Virus record (IMG/VR): IMGVR_UViG_2558860288_000002
Source: a virus
Taxonomy: Duplodnaviria > Heunggongvirae > Uroviricota > Caudoviricetes
DNA: 5,739 bases
Strand: one strand, 5' to 3'
Shown here: positions 27 to 5,739 of the stretch, one piece after another
Layout of the letters: the number at the start of each line of letters is the position of its first letter
Numbering within the stretch: position 1 is the stretch's first letter
Position numbers and translations under genes: made by a program
Notes under the pieces: generated by a model
What the model saw: the letters and a program-made list of their open reading frames with translations, nothing else
The model's database searches: none
Told to the model about the DNA's origin: nothing

Positions 27-245
27 TCAAAAATTCATATGCCCCTGACCACCTGGCAATGGATGTGGAGGAGCAGTAGCAATCAGTGCGGGTGTCACAA
101 TAAACCGGACCACTGTTTCATGGGTAACAAAAGTGCTCCCGCAGTTAATATTTTGGCACTGACAGTAACGCTCTTTGGTGCTTTCAGTTACTTGAAAACT
201 GCTCCTTGTGTGTGCCGCATGACCACACTTTGGACAATTCATCAT
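27..245 (-). CDS. ogr: Ogr/Delta-family zinc-finger late-gene transcriptional activator (72 aa from ATG at 245; the ORF track extends to a GTG at 290)
   Basis: Translation MMNCPKCGHAAHTRSS...KERYCQCQNINCGSTF...PHPLPGGQ has the C-x2-C ... C-x4-C zinc-binding arrangement and a 72-aa length that match my recollection of P2 Ogr (MFHCPLCQHAAH...KERYHQCQNVNC...PHPLPSGQ). AGGGA Shine-Dalgarno about 7 nt upstream of the ATG at 243-245. Lies directly downstream of gpD, as in P2. Confidence 0.85.
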   Translation of the reverse strand: MMNCPKCGHAAHTRSSFQVTESTKERYCQCQNINCGSTFVTHETVVRFIVTPALIATAPPHPLPGGQGHMNF

Positions 246-313: not shown

Positions 314-1414
314 TTATTCCATTTCAAGATCATCAATCTTCACTTCGAGTTCAATACTGGTTGTAAAACCGTTATCCGGGCTGACGGTATGTGTCAGAGT
401 CGTAATGGTCCATTCCGCATCATCTATCAGCTGTTTAAAGCCACTGACTTTCACTGGCATTTCCGTGTAGAGATCTGCCCGCCCTTCCGCCAGTTGTAGC
501 GAGAATGACGCAACGCCGCGTTGCAGGCGTTCCCACTGCATTTTTGCCGCCCGTTCGGCGTTGCTCCGGTTGGCATAGGTGCGATTAAGTACCAGCACAT
601 TTTCATCTGTACCCACCAGGTAATCGCCCTGCTTCGCTTCCGGCTCTTTCTTCTGCTTCTTAGTCCTGCGCTTACGCTTCACCGTGGTGCTTTCTTTCTT
701 CGCGGGTTCGCGGGTATGCAACCAGCTGGCAATTACGCCCGTGTAGGCTCCGCGATCTGCCAGGGTAAAGCGGTGACTGTCGCCGTCCTTACGTGTGATA
801 GTGATAACCGGTAGTGGTTTACCGCTGGCGCTTTTACCCTGTCCCTGACGGATGAATAAAAGATTGCCATTTTTCACCGACGCAATAGCACCGTACTGGC
901 GCGCCAGCCGCATCAGAAAACTGCCGTCACTCTCATTGGTCTGGTCTATATGCTCCACGGGTTTATCCGACAGGTCTTCACCCAGTGCCATCTTCAGTTT
1001 GTGCCGCGCAGCTATTTCCTTCACCACTTCCCCAACGGTGGTCTTGTGCCACGATTTTTCACGGCGGGTATTCAGCGTTTCACGAAAATCAGCACTTCGC
1101 GCCCGGATAGTCAGGCGGTCCGGTGCGCCAGTGTGTTCAATCTCGTCCACCGTGAATGCTCCTTTCGGGAAAAGCGGCTGCCCCTTCCAGCCCAGCGCCA
1201 GCGTGATGACCGCACCACGGCGCGGCAGCACGATTTTTCCGTCGGCGTCGTCCAGCTCCAGATCAAGCTGGTCTGCTTCAAAGCCCCGATTGTCCGTCAG
1301 CGTCAGACTCATCAGGCGGTTATCCAGCACAGTGGTGATATCCTTCCCCTCAATACTGATGCTGAATGCGGGAGTTTTGTTGCCTTTGTTAAGCAGTTCA
1401 GAGCTGAAATTCAC
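314..1414 (-). CDS. D: P2 gpD-like phage late control gene D protein (tail/baseplate hub family), 366 aa
   Basis: 366-aa ORF between gpU and ogr, matching P2 T-U-D-ogr synteny and roughly the size of P2 gpD. GTG start (1412-1414) overlaps the gpU stop (GTGA), with a GGGAGGG Shine-Dalgarno 9 nt upstream inside gpU. Assignment rests on synteny, size and general appearance, not on a computed alignment. Confidence 0.8.
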   Translation of the reverse strand: MNFSSELLNKGNKTPAFSISIEGKDITTVLDNRLMSLTLTDNRGFEADQLDLELDDADGKIVLPRRGAVITLALGWKGQPLFPKGAFTVDEIEHTGAPDRLTIRARSADFRETLNTRREKSWHKTTVGEVVKEIAARHKLKMALGEDLSDKPVEHIDQTNESDGSFLMRLARQYGAIASVKNGNLLFIRQGQGKSASGKPLPVITITRKDGDSHRFTLADRGAYTGVIASWLHTREPAKKESTTVKRKRRTKKQKKEPEAKQGDYLVGTDENVLVLNRTYANRSNAERAAKMQWERLQRGVASFSLQLAEGRADLYTEMPVKVSGFKQLIDDAEWTITTLTHTVSPDNGFTTSIELEVKIDDLEME

Positions 1415-1896
1415 GACAGCAGCCCTCCCACCGTTTTACTGATATCGCTTAAGGCAGACGTTGCCGTATCCTGCAAATTATTCAGCTGCGCACTGAGATC
1501 ACCGAACATATCGGACAGAGATTCATCCACCCGTTTGAGCGACAGGGTGAACTCAATCCGGCGCGGCATACCATCGCGGAAAAACTCCGTTTTAGTCTGA
1601 TTCAGTCCCTCAATCACATACATGCCGTAAATCGTGCCGCTGCCTTCAATCAGGGGCCATGCTTTTCCCTGTTCTGCCATCTGCTCCAGAGCCAGCAACG
1701 ACAGCCTGCCGCCCGTTATCTCCGGCATAAGAACACCAGAAAGCGTCAGCATGTCGTTGTCCGGTCCCAGAAACTGCGTGGACGGACGACGGTTTAGCCG
1801 GCTGTTTGCCGCATGTCGCCAGCTGCGTTGATACTGCAGTTCCTGATACGGAACGGTGCGCAGCATAAACACGTACAATCCCAGCACCATCATCAT
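1411..1896 (-). CDS. U: P2 gpU-like tail protein, 161 aa
   Basis: N-terminus MMMVLGLYVFMLRTVPYQELQYQ resembles remembered gpU-family N-termini. Size close to P2 gpU. ATG (1894-1896) overlaps the T stop (ATGA), with an AGGGGGGA Shine-Dalgarno 8 nt upstream. Sits between T and D. Confidence 0.8.
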   Translation of the reverse strand: MMMVLGLYVFMLRTVPYQELQYQRSWRHAANSRLNRRPSTQFLGPDNDMLTLSGVLMPEITGGRLSLLALEQMAEQGKAWPLIEGSGTIYGMYVIEGLNQTKTEFFRDGMPRRIEFTLSLKRVDESLSDMFGDLSAQLNNLQDTATSALSDISKTVGGLLS

Positions 1897-4800
1897 GCGT
1901 CGTATCCCCCCTGATCGCTGTAGTTACTCCTGGCTTTTGCCTTCAGCCTGCGTTCACGTTCATCAAGCTGGCGGGCCACCTCCCGCGCAATATCCTGCGC
2001 ACTTTGTCCTGGCTGCGTCTGAATGATGATCTGCGTCGGTGCCTCAATCCGTTGAACGGGCGGCACAGTGGCTGCACGACTCACCATCGCTTCGCCGCCT
2101 TTCGAGGGAAGTGCCAAAGGATGCAACGGTGGAAGCTCTGCAGGCGCGGCAGCAACGCCCATCATTCCGGCAACAACGGCAGCCAGTGAAGCTGTATTTC
2201 TCCGGCTGGTCACATTTGCCGGGCCGTTAACAATTTCCGGCCCGTTTTCACCGACGATGCCAAACTGCCCGCGCGGGATATAGCCGCCGCTGTCATACAT
2301 CCCCGCAAAGCCATATCCCCATGACGGAAAACCACCCGATGGCATCATCACTTTACCGTCTGCATTCACCGTCGCAGGTTGCTGACGCGTCACTCTTTCC
2401 GGCAGTTTCGCCTTTGCAGCCTCTTTACTGACAATGCCGAGTTTCTCCAGCAACCAGGAAACGCCGGATTTCAGGGAGTCCAGCGGATGCATGACCATAT
2501 TCAGCCCTTCCGCCAGTGCCTCCCCGAATCGTCGCCCCATTGCCGCTGCGCTCTGCAGTTCGGCAGAGGTCGACTTAACGGGCGTCAGCAGATCAGTAAA
2601 CCAGCCCCACAACGCCTGCACTTTGTCGCCAATCCACTGAAACACAGGCTTAAGTGGTTCGAATGCTGCACTGATGGGACCTGCCGCCGCTTTGAATCCT
2701 TCCACCACACCAGCGAGAAATGCGGTGATGGGTTGCCAGTATTTCCAGACAACCAGCGCCACGCCCGCCAGTGCAGTGACCACAAGACCTATCGGACTGA
2801 GCAGAGCACCTAACAGACCAGATATGGCATACAGGGCAACGCGCAGCATCGCCAGCGGACCGGATGCCAGTACTCGCAGCACCGCGCCTGCGGCAGCCAG
2901 TCCACCGCGTAGTGCTGCCAGTGGATTCATAAACATCACAGCAACAGCACGTAAACCGGATAATCCAGACCGCAACAGTGCAACCGGCACACCTGCTACA
3001 GTTTTCAGGACATTCCCCGTCAGTGATGCCGTGCGGCGCAAAGACGACAACGGCGCAGTAAGTAAACCCGCTGCGTTGCCCGATGAAGCAAGCCCGCGTC
3101 GCAGCCGTACCAGTGGAGCGCCAGCTAACCAGGACAACGCGCTGCTGGTTCGTGTTACTGCTGCCGTAACGGAAGGTAACGTTTTGATACCCAGTACAGA
3201 GAATCCCAGACGGATCACTGCCAGCGGCCCCAGCACTGCAGCCAGCGCCACAGCTAAGGTGCCGAGGCCTACGGTAACCGCAGCCACAACAGCCGCTACT
3301 TTCATCAGTGTGCCTGTCAGTTCCGGGTTAGCTTCCACCCAGCGGCGCAACGCCCCCGTGATGCTTTTCACCGTGTACAGAATATCCATCAGCGGCTGGC
3401 GCAGCGTTTCGCCCAGGCTGCTGAAGGTGTTCTGCGCTCCGGTTTTGACCAGCAACCACTGAGCAGAAAGTGAGTCTTTGTTGATGTCGGATTCTTTCTG
3501 CATGGAACCGAGCGCATCATTGCCCGCTGTCAGTTTTAGCTGGCGCCGCAGTTCCGGAAGGTTGTTTGCCAGTTTCGCCGCGTCATCACCAAACTCTTTA
3601 CCAAACAACATGGTCATGGCAGACAGACGCTTGTCCTGCGGCAGTGCGTTCACCTTCTCCAGCACACGCTGGATAGTTCCCATCGCATCCTTCGTCATCT
3701 GCTTTTCAATCACTTCAGGATTGAGTTTCAGCAGATTCATCCCTTCAAAGAAACTCTTGCTTTGCATGGTGGCAATGGACAATTCACGCACCATCGCGTT
3801 TGCTGCACTGGCTGCAACCTCCGGCGCAGCGCCCAGTGTCAGAAAGGTGGAACCCAGTGCCGCCGCTTTACGATAATCCAGACGGTCAGCCACACCGCCC
3901 AGACGTTGCATCACATCAATGATGTCCGCCCCTTTCGACATGGCGTTATCATCCAGATAGTTCAGCGCATCGCCGAGCTGTTCAATATTGCGGGTAGGTA
4001 TTTTGTAGAGCTGGGCGATTTTCCCCAGACTTTCTGACAGTTCATCCGCTGGCAGCTCAAAGGCTGTTGCCGCCTTTGCTGCCGTACTGGCGAAGGCCAG
4101 CAGGTCACGTTTCTGGTCTTCCCAGCTGTCGTCAGGGTTTGCGACGTTCATGCGCGCACCACCTTCAACCAGTGCAGCGAAGTCCACCGCACCGTTTTCC
4201 ATCGGCAACTGTTCGCTGGCAGCCTTGATGACATCCTGCATTTCATAAAAACGTGCAGTGCGGTTGCCAGTATCGTCACGCAGACCATTGACCTGCTTTG
4301 CCACACCTTTCATGGCATCTTCCATGCTGGTATAGCTTTTTACTGCCGCCATCACTGGCGCACCCATTGCCAGCCCTGCAGCCGTGGTAGTGGCTCCGGC
4401 TCCTGCGATGCGATCGCGCACTTCAAGCCGTCTTGAGTATTGTTCTCTGACAGCGTTCATCCGTGCCTGTTGTTCACCCAGACGTTTAAGTGCTTTTTGC
4501 TGGCCCTCCAATGCCTGCCTTGTTTCTTCAGCATTTTTCTTAAGTTCTCGCTGGGCACTACTGAGTTGTCTGGTATCAATCCCTGATTCTTTAAGTGCCT
4601 GACGTTGTCTCTGGACCGCCCCCAACAAGCCGTTATAGGTCTGCTGAAGTTCCTGTGCTCGTGTTTTGGCCTGACTGAATAACTTTGCCTGCGCGGCGGT
4701 TGGCCTGTTAGTGGCAGCAAATTGTGTGGCGAGTTTTGCCGCCTCTTCGCGGGCTGCGTTCAGGTTGTTGGCTGTTATGGCTAGTTGCGAGCGCGTCTTG

Positions 4801-4970
4801 CGAAATTCATCAATTCTGCCAGCCTGCTTATTTAGTTCTTTGAGGCTGTTTCGGGTATTCTGAATTGCGCCAGCCAGCTCTTTCGAACTGGCCTGTGCAG
4901 CACGAAATGGGCGGGTGAGTTTGTCAACCGCATTAAGAATGACCTGCAGGCGCAGGTTATTATCACTCAT
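1893..4970 (-). CDS. T: Phage tail tape measure protein (gpT-like), 1025 aa
   Basis: Single uninterrupted 1025-aa ORF. The N-terminal ~190 aa are Q/A/K/R/E-rich and look coiled-coil. A central segment (KSYTSMEDAMKGVAKQ...) looks like a tape-measure core. A long Ala/Leu/Gly/Val-rich hydrophobic region (aa ~555-760) contains ~21-aa periodic repeats. It is the largest gene in the block and lies directly upstream of gpU/gpD. Confidence 0.9.
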   Translation of the reverse strand: MSDNNLRLQVILNAVDKLTRPFRAAQASSKELAGAIQNTRNSLKELNKQAGRIDEFRKTRSQLAITANNLNAAREEAAKLATQFAATNRPTAAQAKLFSQAKTRAQELQQTYNGLLGAVQRQRQALKESGIDTRQLSSAQRELKKNAEETRQALEGQQKALKRLGEQQARMNAVREQYSRRLEVRDRIAGAGATTTAAGLAMGAPVMAAVKSYTSMEDAMKGVAKQVNGLRDDTGNRTARFYEMQDVIKAASEQLPMENGAVDFAALVEGGARMNVANPDDSWEDQKRDLLAFASTAAKAATAFELPADELSESLGKIAQLYKIPTRNIEQLGDALNYLDDNAMSKGADIIDVMQRLGGVADRLDYRKAAALGSTFLTLGAAPEVAASAANAMVRELSIATMQSKSFFEGMNLLKLNPEVIEKQMTKDAMGTIQRVLEKVNALPQDKRLSAMTMLFGKEFGDDAAKLANNLPELRRQLKLTAGNDALGSMQKESDINKDSLSAQWLLVKTGAQNTFSSLGETLRQPLMDILYTVKSITGALRRWVEANPELTGTLMKVAAVVAAVTVGLGTLAVALAAVLGPLAVIRLGFSVLGIKTLPSVTAAVTRTSSALSWLAGAPLVRLRRGLASSGNAAGLLTAPLSSLRRTASLTGNVLKTVAGVPVALLRSGLSGLRAVAVMFMNPLAALRGGLAAAGAVLRVLASGPLAMLRVALYAISGLLGALLSPIGLVVTALAGVALVVWKYWQPITAFLAGVVEGFKAAAGPISAAFEPLKPVFQWIGDKVQALWGWFTDLLTPVKSTSAELQSAAAMGRRFGEALAEGLNMVMHPLDSLKSGVSWLLEKLGIVSKEAAKAKLPERVTRQQPATVNADGKVMMPSGGFPSWGYGFAGMYDSGGYIPRGQFGIVGENGPEIVNGPANVTSRRNTASLAAVVAGMMGVAAAPAELPPLHPLALPSKGGEAMVSRAATVPPVQRIEAPTQIIIQTQPGQSAQDIAREVARQLDERERRLKAKARSNYSDQGGYDA
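2766..3122 (-). repeat. In-frame periodic repeat inside the tape measure gene: about six ~21-aa units of the form PL..LR..L....G..L
   Basis: Protein segments APLVRLRRGLASSGNAAGLLT / APLSSLRRTASLTGNVLKTVAG / VPVALLRSGLSGLRAVAVMFMN / PLAALRGGLAAAGAVLRVLASG / PLAMLRVALYAISGLLGALLS / PIGLVVTALAGVALVV (T residues ~617-735). Confidence 0.5.
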
Positions 4971-5328
4971 CGTTGGCCCCGCTTCTCTGAATTGCTTTAT
5001 ACCGCCATTCCAGCACTTCGGTCAGCGGCATAACGTCAGTAACGGATGGCGGCCAGTGAAAAATGGTGGCGATAACGCCACCATTGATCACCACTTCGCT
5101 GTTAATGCGCGTGCGGTCAGCCTCCAGTACAAACTCACTGGTTTTCATGGTGATGTTGTCAGCGGCCTCAATGACCATTGATTTGATGCCCCTGACATAC
5201 CAGCGCCCGGTGGCGGGTTCGTATTCAAACCAGCCACCGTCAGGATGTTCTGTCACGCAGGCGTTCGCCGACGTCGACGGTGGCGCGAACTGATTCGAAT
5301 AGATGGCGGGTACGGCTGCAGACGACAA
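4963..5328 (-). CDS. Hypothetical phage ORF at the position expected for the tail assembly chaperone E/E'; possibly an N-terminally truncated or fused remnant. The first ATG is at 5178, giving a 71-aa product (4963..5178)
   Basis: Open frame ending 8 nt inside the T start. The track start is a TTG at 5328 and the frame stays open upstream with no ATG until 5176-5178. Its upper part overlaps the truncated endolysin ORF in another frame. No intact partner ORF exists in the frame from which a -1 shift would enter it (stops at 5253, 5145, 5088 and 5022). Identity is unresolved. Confidence 0.3.
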   Translation of the reverse strand: MSSAAVPAIYSNQFAPPSTSANACVTEHPDGGWFEYEPATGRWYVRGIKSMVIEAADNITMKTSEFVLEADRTRINSEVVINGGVIATIFHWPPSVTDVMPLTEVLEWRYKAIQRSGANDE

Positions 5329-5453
5329 CCTTCGTAATCGGCAATCAGTTTCAGCCCTTCCACGGAGGTGTGAAGCTGCTGAAAACCCGGCAGCGTGGCA
5401 GCAATAGCCAGCACGGCCCCGACAAGGCAGCGTTTAACGATTGATGGATTCAT
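5253..5453 (-). pseudogene. Truncated SAR-type endolysin (T4-lysozyme-like, GH24): only ~48 N-terminal codons are recognisable (5310..5453), followed by an out-of-frame Arg-rich tail
   Basis: N-terminus MNPSIVKRCLVGAVLAIAATLPG is a weakly hydrophobic signal-anchor-release-like segment, followed by EGLKLIADYEGCRLQPY, which resembles the start of the lysozyme catalytic motif (catalytic Glu region). Full-length members are about 160-180 aa; here the ORF ends at 66 aa with PPSIRISSRHRRRRRTPA, which does not look like lysozyme. The ATG at 5451-5453 overlaps the holin 3' end by 20 nt, and a GGAGG sits just upstream. Confidence 0.55.
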
Positions 5454-5649
5454 AGTCCTCCCGCGAGATCTGCCCGTCGCGCAGAAGCTGGTAGGCTTTG
5501 TGTTTGTAGTACCAGTTGATAGCCAGCATCAGCACACCAATCATCAGGCCGCCCAGCGTTGAGGCATCCTTGATGGACAAATCGCCCAGCCAGGCCAGCA
5601 CAACGGCGATGCAGTACGTGATAAAGGCGCTGATTCGCTCAAGCGTCAT
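5434..5649 (-). CDS. Class II (two-TMD) phage holin, pinholin-like, 71 aa
   Basis: 71-aa product with two predicted transmembrane segments (ISAFITYCIAVVLAWLG and TLGGLMIGVLMLAINWYY) and a charged C-terminus (KHKAYQLLRDGQISREDYESINR). Lies immediately upstream of, and overlapping, the SAR-endolysin start, which is the usual holin-endolysin arrangement. GGGA Shine-Dalgarno about 7 nt upstream of the ATG at 5647-5649. Confidence 0.65.
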   Translation of the reverse strand: MTLERISAFITYCIAVVLAWLGDLSIKDASTLGGLMIGVLMLAINWYYKHKAYQLLRDGQISREDYESINR

Positions 5650-5727
5650 AATTCAGTCCCATAGCTGGACGGTCTGCACGGTGGTGGTGGTCGGTATGTC
5701 CGGCAGCTCCACCTGCAGCCCGTGAGG

Positions 5728-5739
5728 TAAAAAGGGGCC
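5728..5739 (-). terminator. Possible 3' half of an intrinsic terminator upstream of the holin (GGCCCC followed by TTTTT on the minus strand); the stem partner would lie beyond the window end
   Basis: Minus strand reads 5'-GGCCCCTTTTTACC-3' at 5739..5726, about 80 nt upstream of the holin ATG. Lambdoid late operons carry a terminator (tR'-like) just upstream of the holin gene. Only half the element is visible. Confidence 0.2.

Follow-up and report, generated by a model that had tools for sequence, protein, structure and literature searches.

The 71-codon open reading frame (ORF) at 5434..5649 on the minus strand of the window, as we call the whole 5,739-nt stretch of DNA analysed here, is a real and intact phage holin gene that very probably was passively orphaned by recent deletions in a P2-family prophage of Escherichia coli ECC-Z. 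A Fels-2-like prophage of the P2 family (Peduoviridae) is integrated next to ssrA, and the window forms its right-hand end; two deletions by illegitimate recombination would have removed ~10.2 kb of this prophage, and the holin would have survived by its position, because it is located just upstream of the second breakpoint (B). The observation is one of ordinary prophage decay, and the holin gene was already known.

Gene content of the window

The window comes from contig AHHN01000009.1 (30,956 nt) of E. coli ECC-Z, a bovine-mastitis isolate that was sequenced with 454 technology and assembled with Newbler (PMC4373696). It comprises the last 5739 nt of the contig bar one base, with smpB and ssrA just beyond ogr, and its edge is the contig end, inside gene X (position 5739 is position 2 of our locus L003). 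This break in X probably marks the boundary of a repeat shared with another P2-like prophage, or of an IS element. Separately, the G+C content given for the ECC-Z assembly is 53.0%, compared with ~50.7% in the other E. coli of the same table (PMC4373696, Table 1), an odd value for an E. coli draft that may reflect contamination or a data-entry error.

All the window genes lie on the minus strand. At the contig end we found the 3' end of tail gene X (5653..5739; the last 28 codons and the TGA; PF05489 Phage_tail_X, E 1.1e-6), which shares 100% identity with the gpX of L005, an intact prophage. It is followed by the holin gene and by the 5' remnant of a lysozyme gene (5311..5453), then by an internal fragment of the baseplate gene V (5075..5310; approximately codons 81-159 of 192; PHROG 9992, E 4e-4) and by a 3' remnant of the E/E' tail-chaperone gene, a GpE family ORF devoid of its first codons (4963..5074; PF06528, E 9.7e-16). 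The remaining genes are full length: the tape-measure gene T (1893..4970; 3078 nt, 1025 aa), the tail genes U (1411..1896; 161 aa) and D (314..1414; 366 aa), and ogr (27..245; 72 aa), which encodes an Ogr/Delta zinc-finger late-promoter activator whose translation carries the CX2CX22CX4C motif as defined in PMC3931495. We also observed an in-frame fusion of the gpV fragment with the gpE' remnant, which gives a 121-aa chimeric ORF with a TTG start (4963-5328, minus strand); an exact look-up of this V'-E' fusion returned none on record. Rfam gave nothing at gathering thresholds in the whole window.

The holin gene

According to the ORF list, the reading frame at 5434..5649 (minus strand) begins with an ATG and has 71 codons, and its product is MTLERISAFITYCIAVVLAWLGDLSIKDASTLGGLMIGVLMLAINWYYKHKAYQLLRDGQISREDYESINR. 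In Pfam it matched PF16080 (Phage_holin_2_3, holin family HP1) with 36.7 bits against a cut-off of 28.8 (E 4.3e-9), and it matched PHROG 20, annotated as 'holin', at 1.9e-26. No NCBIfam model matched the holin; the RefSeq name of the identical protein WP_000171568.1 ('HP1 family phage holin') is probably derived from the Pfam family. Kyte-Doolittle hydropathy predicted two hydrophobic peaks, one over residues ~6-22 and the other over ~29-48, with the acidic loop DLSIKD between them. The second transmembrane domain (TMD) is flanked by K49/K51, and the C-terminal tail of 23 residues contains 5 basic and 4 acidic ones. This pattern of two TMDs and a charged tail is predicted to be kept in 19 homologues, and the layout described for class II holins is N-in, C-in (PMC9636201). 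Judged by its family score, its two predicted TMDs and its position in the lysis cassette, the 71-aa product fits a class II holin of the HP1 family (HP1/Fels-2 type). Thus, the complete ORF with a good ATG start, the two transmembrane segments and the charged C-terminus noticed in an earlier sequence-only reading of this DNA were all confirmed by our predictions.

The same reading had credited the gene with a Shine-Dalgarno (SD) sequence. Such a sequence is present (GGGA, contributed by the final codons of gene X) but weak, with -3.9 kcal/mol against the anti-SD compared with -10.3 kcal/mol for the lysozyme start. The holin ATG lies 4 nt past the gpX stop codon in all relatives, which makes translational coupling to X likely. 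In addition, the TGA of gpX (5650-5655, minus strand) is in the holin frame, with a single ATT codon between TGA and ATG, and this TGA-ATT-ATG arrangement at the X/holin boundary is conserved in nearly all relatives; read-through of the stop codon would therefore yield an X-holin fusion.

The holin protein is 100% identical to the holins of isolated phages, among them Escherichia phage Cartapus and Klebsiella phage KP12, and WP_000171568.1 is also found in intact prophages and in ~18% of the complete E. coli genomes. In the literature we found no experimental test of holin activity for this family member, and the KP12 paper is computational only. The full-length homologues from other species are all 71 aa long (19/19). 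Between these 19 homologues and the window copy, dN/dS is 0.15-0.37, values that reflect selection in functional phages and not in the remnant. A comparison of conservation and selection across strains carrying the remnant had been proposed; one strain only was found to have it.

The truncated lysozyme partner

The gene that overlaps the 3' end of the holin gene is a 5' remnant (5311..5453, minus strand; codons 1-47 and 2 nt) of a P1 Lyz-like SAR endolysin gene. It opens a 66-aa chimeric ORF (5253..5453, minus strand; GenBank EST63411.1) made of lysozyme residues 1-48 and 18 out-of-frame residues, PPSIRISSRHRRRRRTPA, which are read from the gpV fragment. Hence the claim that the partner endolysin has lost most of its catalytic domain is correct, as 48 of 170 residues are retained before the reading frame is lost. 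The remnant keeps the SAR domain, Cys9, Glu41 and Cys43, while Cys50, Thr56 and the remaining fold are gone. We take the motif E-x8-C-x5-T (with C or D at the middle position in the family) to correspond to Glu41, Cys50 and Thr56 in this lysozyme. The window ORF has neither the complete fold nor the complete catalytic motif of a functional GH24 P1 Lyz-type endolysin and, going by its sequence, the window lysozyme is dead.

The nature of the lost enzyme was read from the intact relatives. Of the solved structures, P1 Lyz matches their lysozyme (170 aa) best (1XJT, E 2.9e-26). The stretch EGCR..PY.C.AGVWTDGIGNT is shared by the two, and the lysozyme of the relatives carries an N-terminal Ala/Gly/Leu-rich hydrophobic segment after Lys-Arg. 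The match to P1 Lyz together with this segment indicates that the intact lysozyme is a SAR-type endolysin.

The lysozyme start and its strong SD (GGGAGGA, -10.3 kcal/mol) sit inside the 3' end of the holin gene, with an overlap of 20 nt. The chimeric stub (5253-5474, minus strand) has kept both; if transcribed, it would be expected to give the 66-aa peptide efficiently, with a predicted SAR helix followed by an Arg-rich out-of-frame tail (RHRRRRR).

Two deletions and their junctions

As a reference for the deletions we used the complete prophage L004, which strain WP3-S18-ESBL-09 carries at this ssrA site and which is 98.2% identical to the window from ogr to E. Its genes are ordered X, holin, lysozyme, a membrane protein of the DNZ54_00345 family, LysB, LysC, R, S, V, W, J, I, H, G, FI, FII, E, T, U, D and ogr. 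Deletion A runs from inside E to inside V and corresponds to 7752 nt of the reference (L004 21076-28827); its junction lies at window position 5073/5074 with a TA microhomology, within short imperfect repeats (TGGTGGC..TA). Deletion B runs from inside V to lysozyme codon 48 and corresponds to 2448 nt (L004 29066-31513), with a junction at 5310|5311 that shows no homology. Both breakpoints look typical of illegitimate recombination.

Altogether ~10.2 kb are missing with respect to L004, and what is left is X', holin, lys', V', E', T, U, D and ogr. The losses include most of the SAR endolysin, the 4-TMD membrane protein at the LysA position, the spanins LysB/LysC, and R and S, as well as the genes for baseplate, tail fibre, sheath and tube; the late promoters PV and PF went with them. 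The window thus falls short of a complete P2-family (Fels-2-like) prophage, which would have the full late-gene set and both of these promoters.

Junction A also coincides with a terminator-like hairpin (5059..5088, minus strand; scan site 5083-5067) that has a perfect 10-bp stem, a UUAU loop and the tract UUUUUCA. Its folding energy is -23.6 kcal/mol (z -6.66), compared with -13.4 kcal/mol (z -2.24) for the parental sequence. The intact phage already has a hairpin here; the junction, located in its loop, created the perfect stem and U-run, between the holin scar and gene T.

Distribution of the scar and signs of selection

The holin itself is common. We found it in about 981-982 of the 5426 complete E. 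coli genomes, 964 of which have holin plus lysozyme at a coverage of at least 80%. In 17 complete E. coli genomes the holin is present and holin plus lysozyme are covered at less than 80%; these may carry mosaic lysozymes rather than truncations. In other species, the lysozyme is full length, with the holin immediately upstream, in all the loci with enough DNA (17/17).

The scar was found in a single genome. None of the 5426 complete E. coli genomes covers 4900-5739, the region of the double junction, in one piece; in the indexed public assemblies a single contig has the 66-aa chimeric ORF, and a 30-nt sequence across junction B had no match in metagenome or viral contigs. With one carrier only, selection has no lineage to act on or to be measured in.

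The retained DNA also looks recent. The 429 nt from 5311 to 5739 (X'-holin-lys') are 100% identical at the nucleotide level to the complete prophage of strain PSS-15, and T, U, D and ogr match their counterparts in the intact L004 in length. T is useless without sheath, tube and baseplate, yet it is full length, and decay by point mutation has not begun in any retained gene. Because these useless neighbours are equally intact, the intactness of the holin carries no information on selection. Neither an orphan state kept across a lineage nor purifying selection on the holin only, as exaptation would entail, was found. Among the reasons offered earlier for the retention of the holin, a recently formed deletion is the one that these identities, the full-length neighbours and the confinement of the scar to one assembly support.

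Expression and the proposed terminator

P2-type late operons are transcribed only from Ogr-activated promoters with the element TGT-N12-ACA (PMC3931495). In an intact relative we located these elements exactly in the intergenic regions upstream of O/P, V and FI, and none was detected near the holin in the window. The holin of the intact relative lies ~3.4 kb downstream of PO, a position that in ECC-Z falls beyond the contig end. No sigma-70-like promoter was predicted on the coding strand between 4800 and 5739, an interval that covers 90 nt upstream of the holin. Given that the contig ends inside gene X, the promoter context of the holin lies outside the ECC-Z assembly. The supplementary tables of the published ECC-Z RNA-seq study list MG1655 genes only and thus say nothing of this prophage (PMC5072449).

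Silencing by a possible terminator at the window edge, another of the reasons offered earlier, was rejected. The candidate is a GGGGC-N12-GCCCC-T5 element (5-bp stem, 12-nt loop), half of which is in the window; it lies within the coding sequence of gpX, also in functional phages, which must read through it. In the intact relative the element is outside the minimum-energy fold and scores no better than shuffled sequences (z +0.28). A terminator scan found none upstream of the holin.

To call a holin 'unopposed' when its endolysin is disabled is a misconception, since endolysins do not neutralise holins. Triggering of a holin collapses the membrane potential (proton motive force) and kills on its own (PMC9636201). 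The normal restraint on a P2-type holin is its transcription from Ogr-activated late promoters (PMC3931495), to which P2 adds the antiholin LysA (PMC3091744). By its family, the window holin would be a two-TMD membrane protein in the N-in/C-in layout that permeabilises the inner membrane at a set time, with lethal effect; in the intact relatives its action would release the P1 Lyz-like endolysin from its membrane tether and activate it. In a cell devoid of endolysin and spanins, the holin could still be lethal but could not bring about lysis. The host would tolerate the gene as the ~980 holin-carrying E. coli presumably do, with no promoter of its own and only the Ogr-dependent PO, which should be silent in a lysogen.

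Other prophage remnants

The P2-like remnants of E. coli N196, EC26 and BL21(DE3) have, like that of ECC-Z, arbitrary internal deletions in the same gene block, although the ECC-Z breakpoints are not shared with any of them. In N196 (L001 4772-6901) the remnant is inserted in artJ and has kept X, the holin and the whole lysozyme gene. Missing from it are the gene at the LysA position, the spanins, R and S, together with the 5' part of V, and a fusion joins its terminase and portal genes. In EC26, a strain from bovine milk with a prophage at the ssrA site (L002 9963-14138), baseplate gene J stands directly next to gpE, and the genes for tail fibre, sheath and tube are absent. This prophage also has a pair of genes for an AAA-ATPase and a DUF4435 protein between S and V, possibly a defence cargo. 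In the BL21(DE3) remnant (NZ_CP053602.1 884909-885057; H159) the situation is reversed with respect to ECC-Z: the holin is deleted, and the lysozyme gene persists as a 3' part only, beside the capsid scaffold gene O. Finally, in the heavily decayed remnant of Klebsiella sp. R390 (L024 3136-4607) the N-terminal part of a capsid protein leads into a holin fragment (residues 19-62), which is followed by an ogr-like ORF with zinc-finger cysteines replaced (..YNQCQNINSS..). These older remnants, R390 and BL21(DE3), show the eventual fate of an orphan holin.

Alternative explanations

Three other explanations were weighed against passive orphaning by recent deletions. If ECC-Z had an intact P2-like prophage, or several, and the junctions had been mis-joined during assembly, the holin would not be orphaned at all. 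The deletions do rest on a single 2011-era 454/Newbler draft, the window stops 1 nt from the contig end, inside X, and the scar is in no other genome searched; moreover, E. coli genomes often have two or three P2-like regions, which invites repeat collapse. Nonetheless, we consider such an artefact improbable. The junctions share 0-2 nt only, too little for an overlap assembler to mis-join, and the V fragment, at 236 nt, is shorter than a 454 read, so that both joins would sit inside individual reads. Furthermore, the imperfect repeats at junction A are what is expected of a RecA-independent deletion, and comparable independent deletions are found in such prophages of other E. coli strains.

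The two remaining explanations give the holin a function. A trans-activated suicide module, in which the Ogr/Delta protein of an incoming P2-family phage, of a P4-like satellite or of the remnant's own ogr would switch on X-holin through a surviving PO, seems to us very unlikely. In such a case the lone holin would depolarise the cell early and the infection would be aborted without lysis. The intact ogr, the deletion of the gene at the LysA (antiholin) position and the TGT-N12-ACA element shared by the late promoters of the phage group are all compatible with it. The proposal is, however, purely inferential and hinges on a PO upstream of the contig end; it concerns a single strain with no sign of selection, and intact lysogens would respond likewise, so the effect would not be specific to the remnant. 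We give the slimmest chance to a holin domesticated by the host, one that selection maintains as a factor for membrane permeabilisation or release, by analogy with the holin-dependent export of toxins or enzymes. The ORF is intact, and holin-like proteins with host functions do exist, such as CidA/LrgA and the GTA holin (cited in PMC9636201). Against this stand the orphan state in one strain only, the zero divergence from the phage copies, the lack of a predicted promoter of its own and the equally intact useless neighbours, together with the R390 remnant, whose holin is truncated at both ends, and that of BL21(DE3), which retains a lysozyme fragment and no holin. For host use of this particular holin, as suggested in the sequence-only reading, we found nothing in favour beyond these general points, and its orphan state is that of a single strain.

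Apart from annotation, passive orphaning of the holin is of little consequence. The label that suits the 71-codon gene is that of a phage holin belonging to a defective prophage of the P2 family, and the 66-aa ORF is best labelled a pseudogene fragment of a lysozyme. The remnant also illustrates neatly why the intactness of a short ORF soon after a deletion is not evidence of selection, as the 3-kb gene T is equally intact. Were the holin expressed in ECC-Z, it could bear on abortive-infection-like effects of defective prophages; nothing points there.

Comparison with known systems

A pinholin of the S21 68 type was considered because the partner endolysin is of the SAR type. Such pinholins form heptameric channels ~2 nm wide, through which cytoplasmic endolysin is not released. 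Like S21 68 of phage 21, the window holin has ~70 aa, two TMDs and a charged C-terminal tail, and its intact relatives, like S21 68 with R21, pair it with a SAR-type endolysin, of which the window copy is truncated. There is also a weak sequence similarity to the phage 21 holin family, with PF04971 (P21 holin S family) below its threshold (23.2 bits against a cut-off of 26, E 7e-5). Unlike the Gly/Ala/Ser-rich SAR TMD1 of S21, however, TMD1 of the window holin is strongly hydrophobic (KD ~2.1): its 15-residue KD mean reaches 2.18, compared with at most 0.63 for TMD1 of S21. Nor does the gene have a dual-start motif, since its single Met is at position 1 and the in-frame upstream codons are ATT and then TGA. 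On these three grounds the pinholin assignment was dropped. To our knowledge, LydA of phage P1 is not described as a pinholin. P1 itself has a SAR endolysin paired with this holin (PMC9025707).

With P2, the window shares the logic of the lysis cassette. The holin occupies the same position downstream of X as in the Y-K-lysA-lysB-lysC cluster of the PO late operon, under the same late-promoter logic, and the order holin, endolysin, 4-TMD membrane protein and Rz/Rz1-like spanins is common to P2 and this phage group. The proteins themselves differ: P2 Y is a three-TMD class I holin unrelated in sequence to the window holin, and P2 K is a soluble endolysin that is not known as a P1 Lyz-like SAR enzyme.

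The closest relationship is with the Fels-2-like phages. Their lysozyme is complete, unlike that of the window, which is cut after codon 48, and the window has lost their LysA-position gene, their spanins and most of their tail genes. The 71-aa holin, on the other hand, is identical in sequence to WP_000171568.1 and to the holins of Cartapus and KP12, and 80% identical to that of Fels-2. As in these phages, its ATG is 4 nt past the X stop codon and its 3' end overlaps the lysozyme start by 20 nt.
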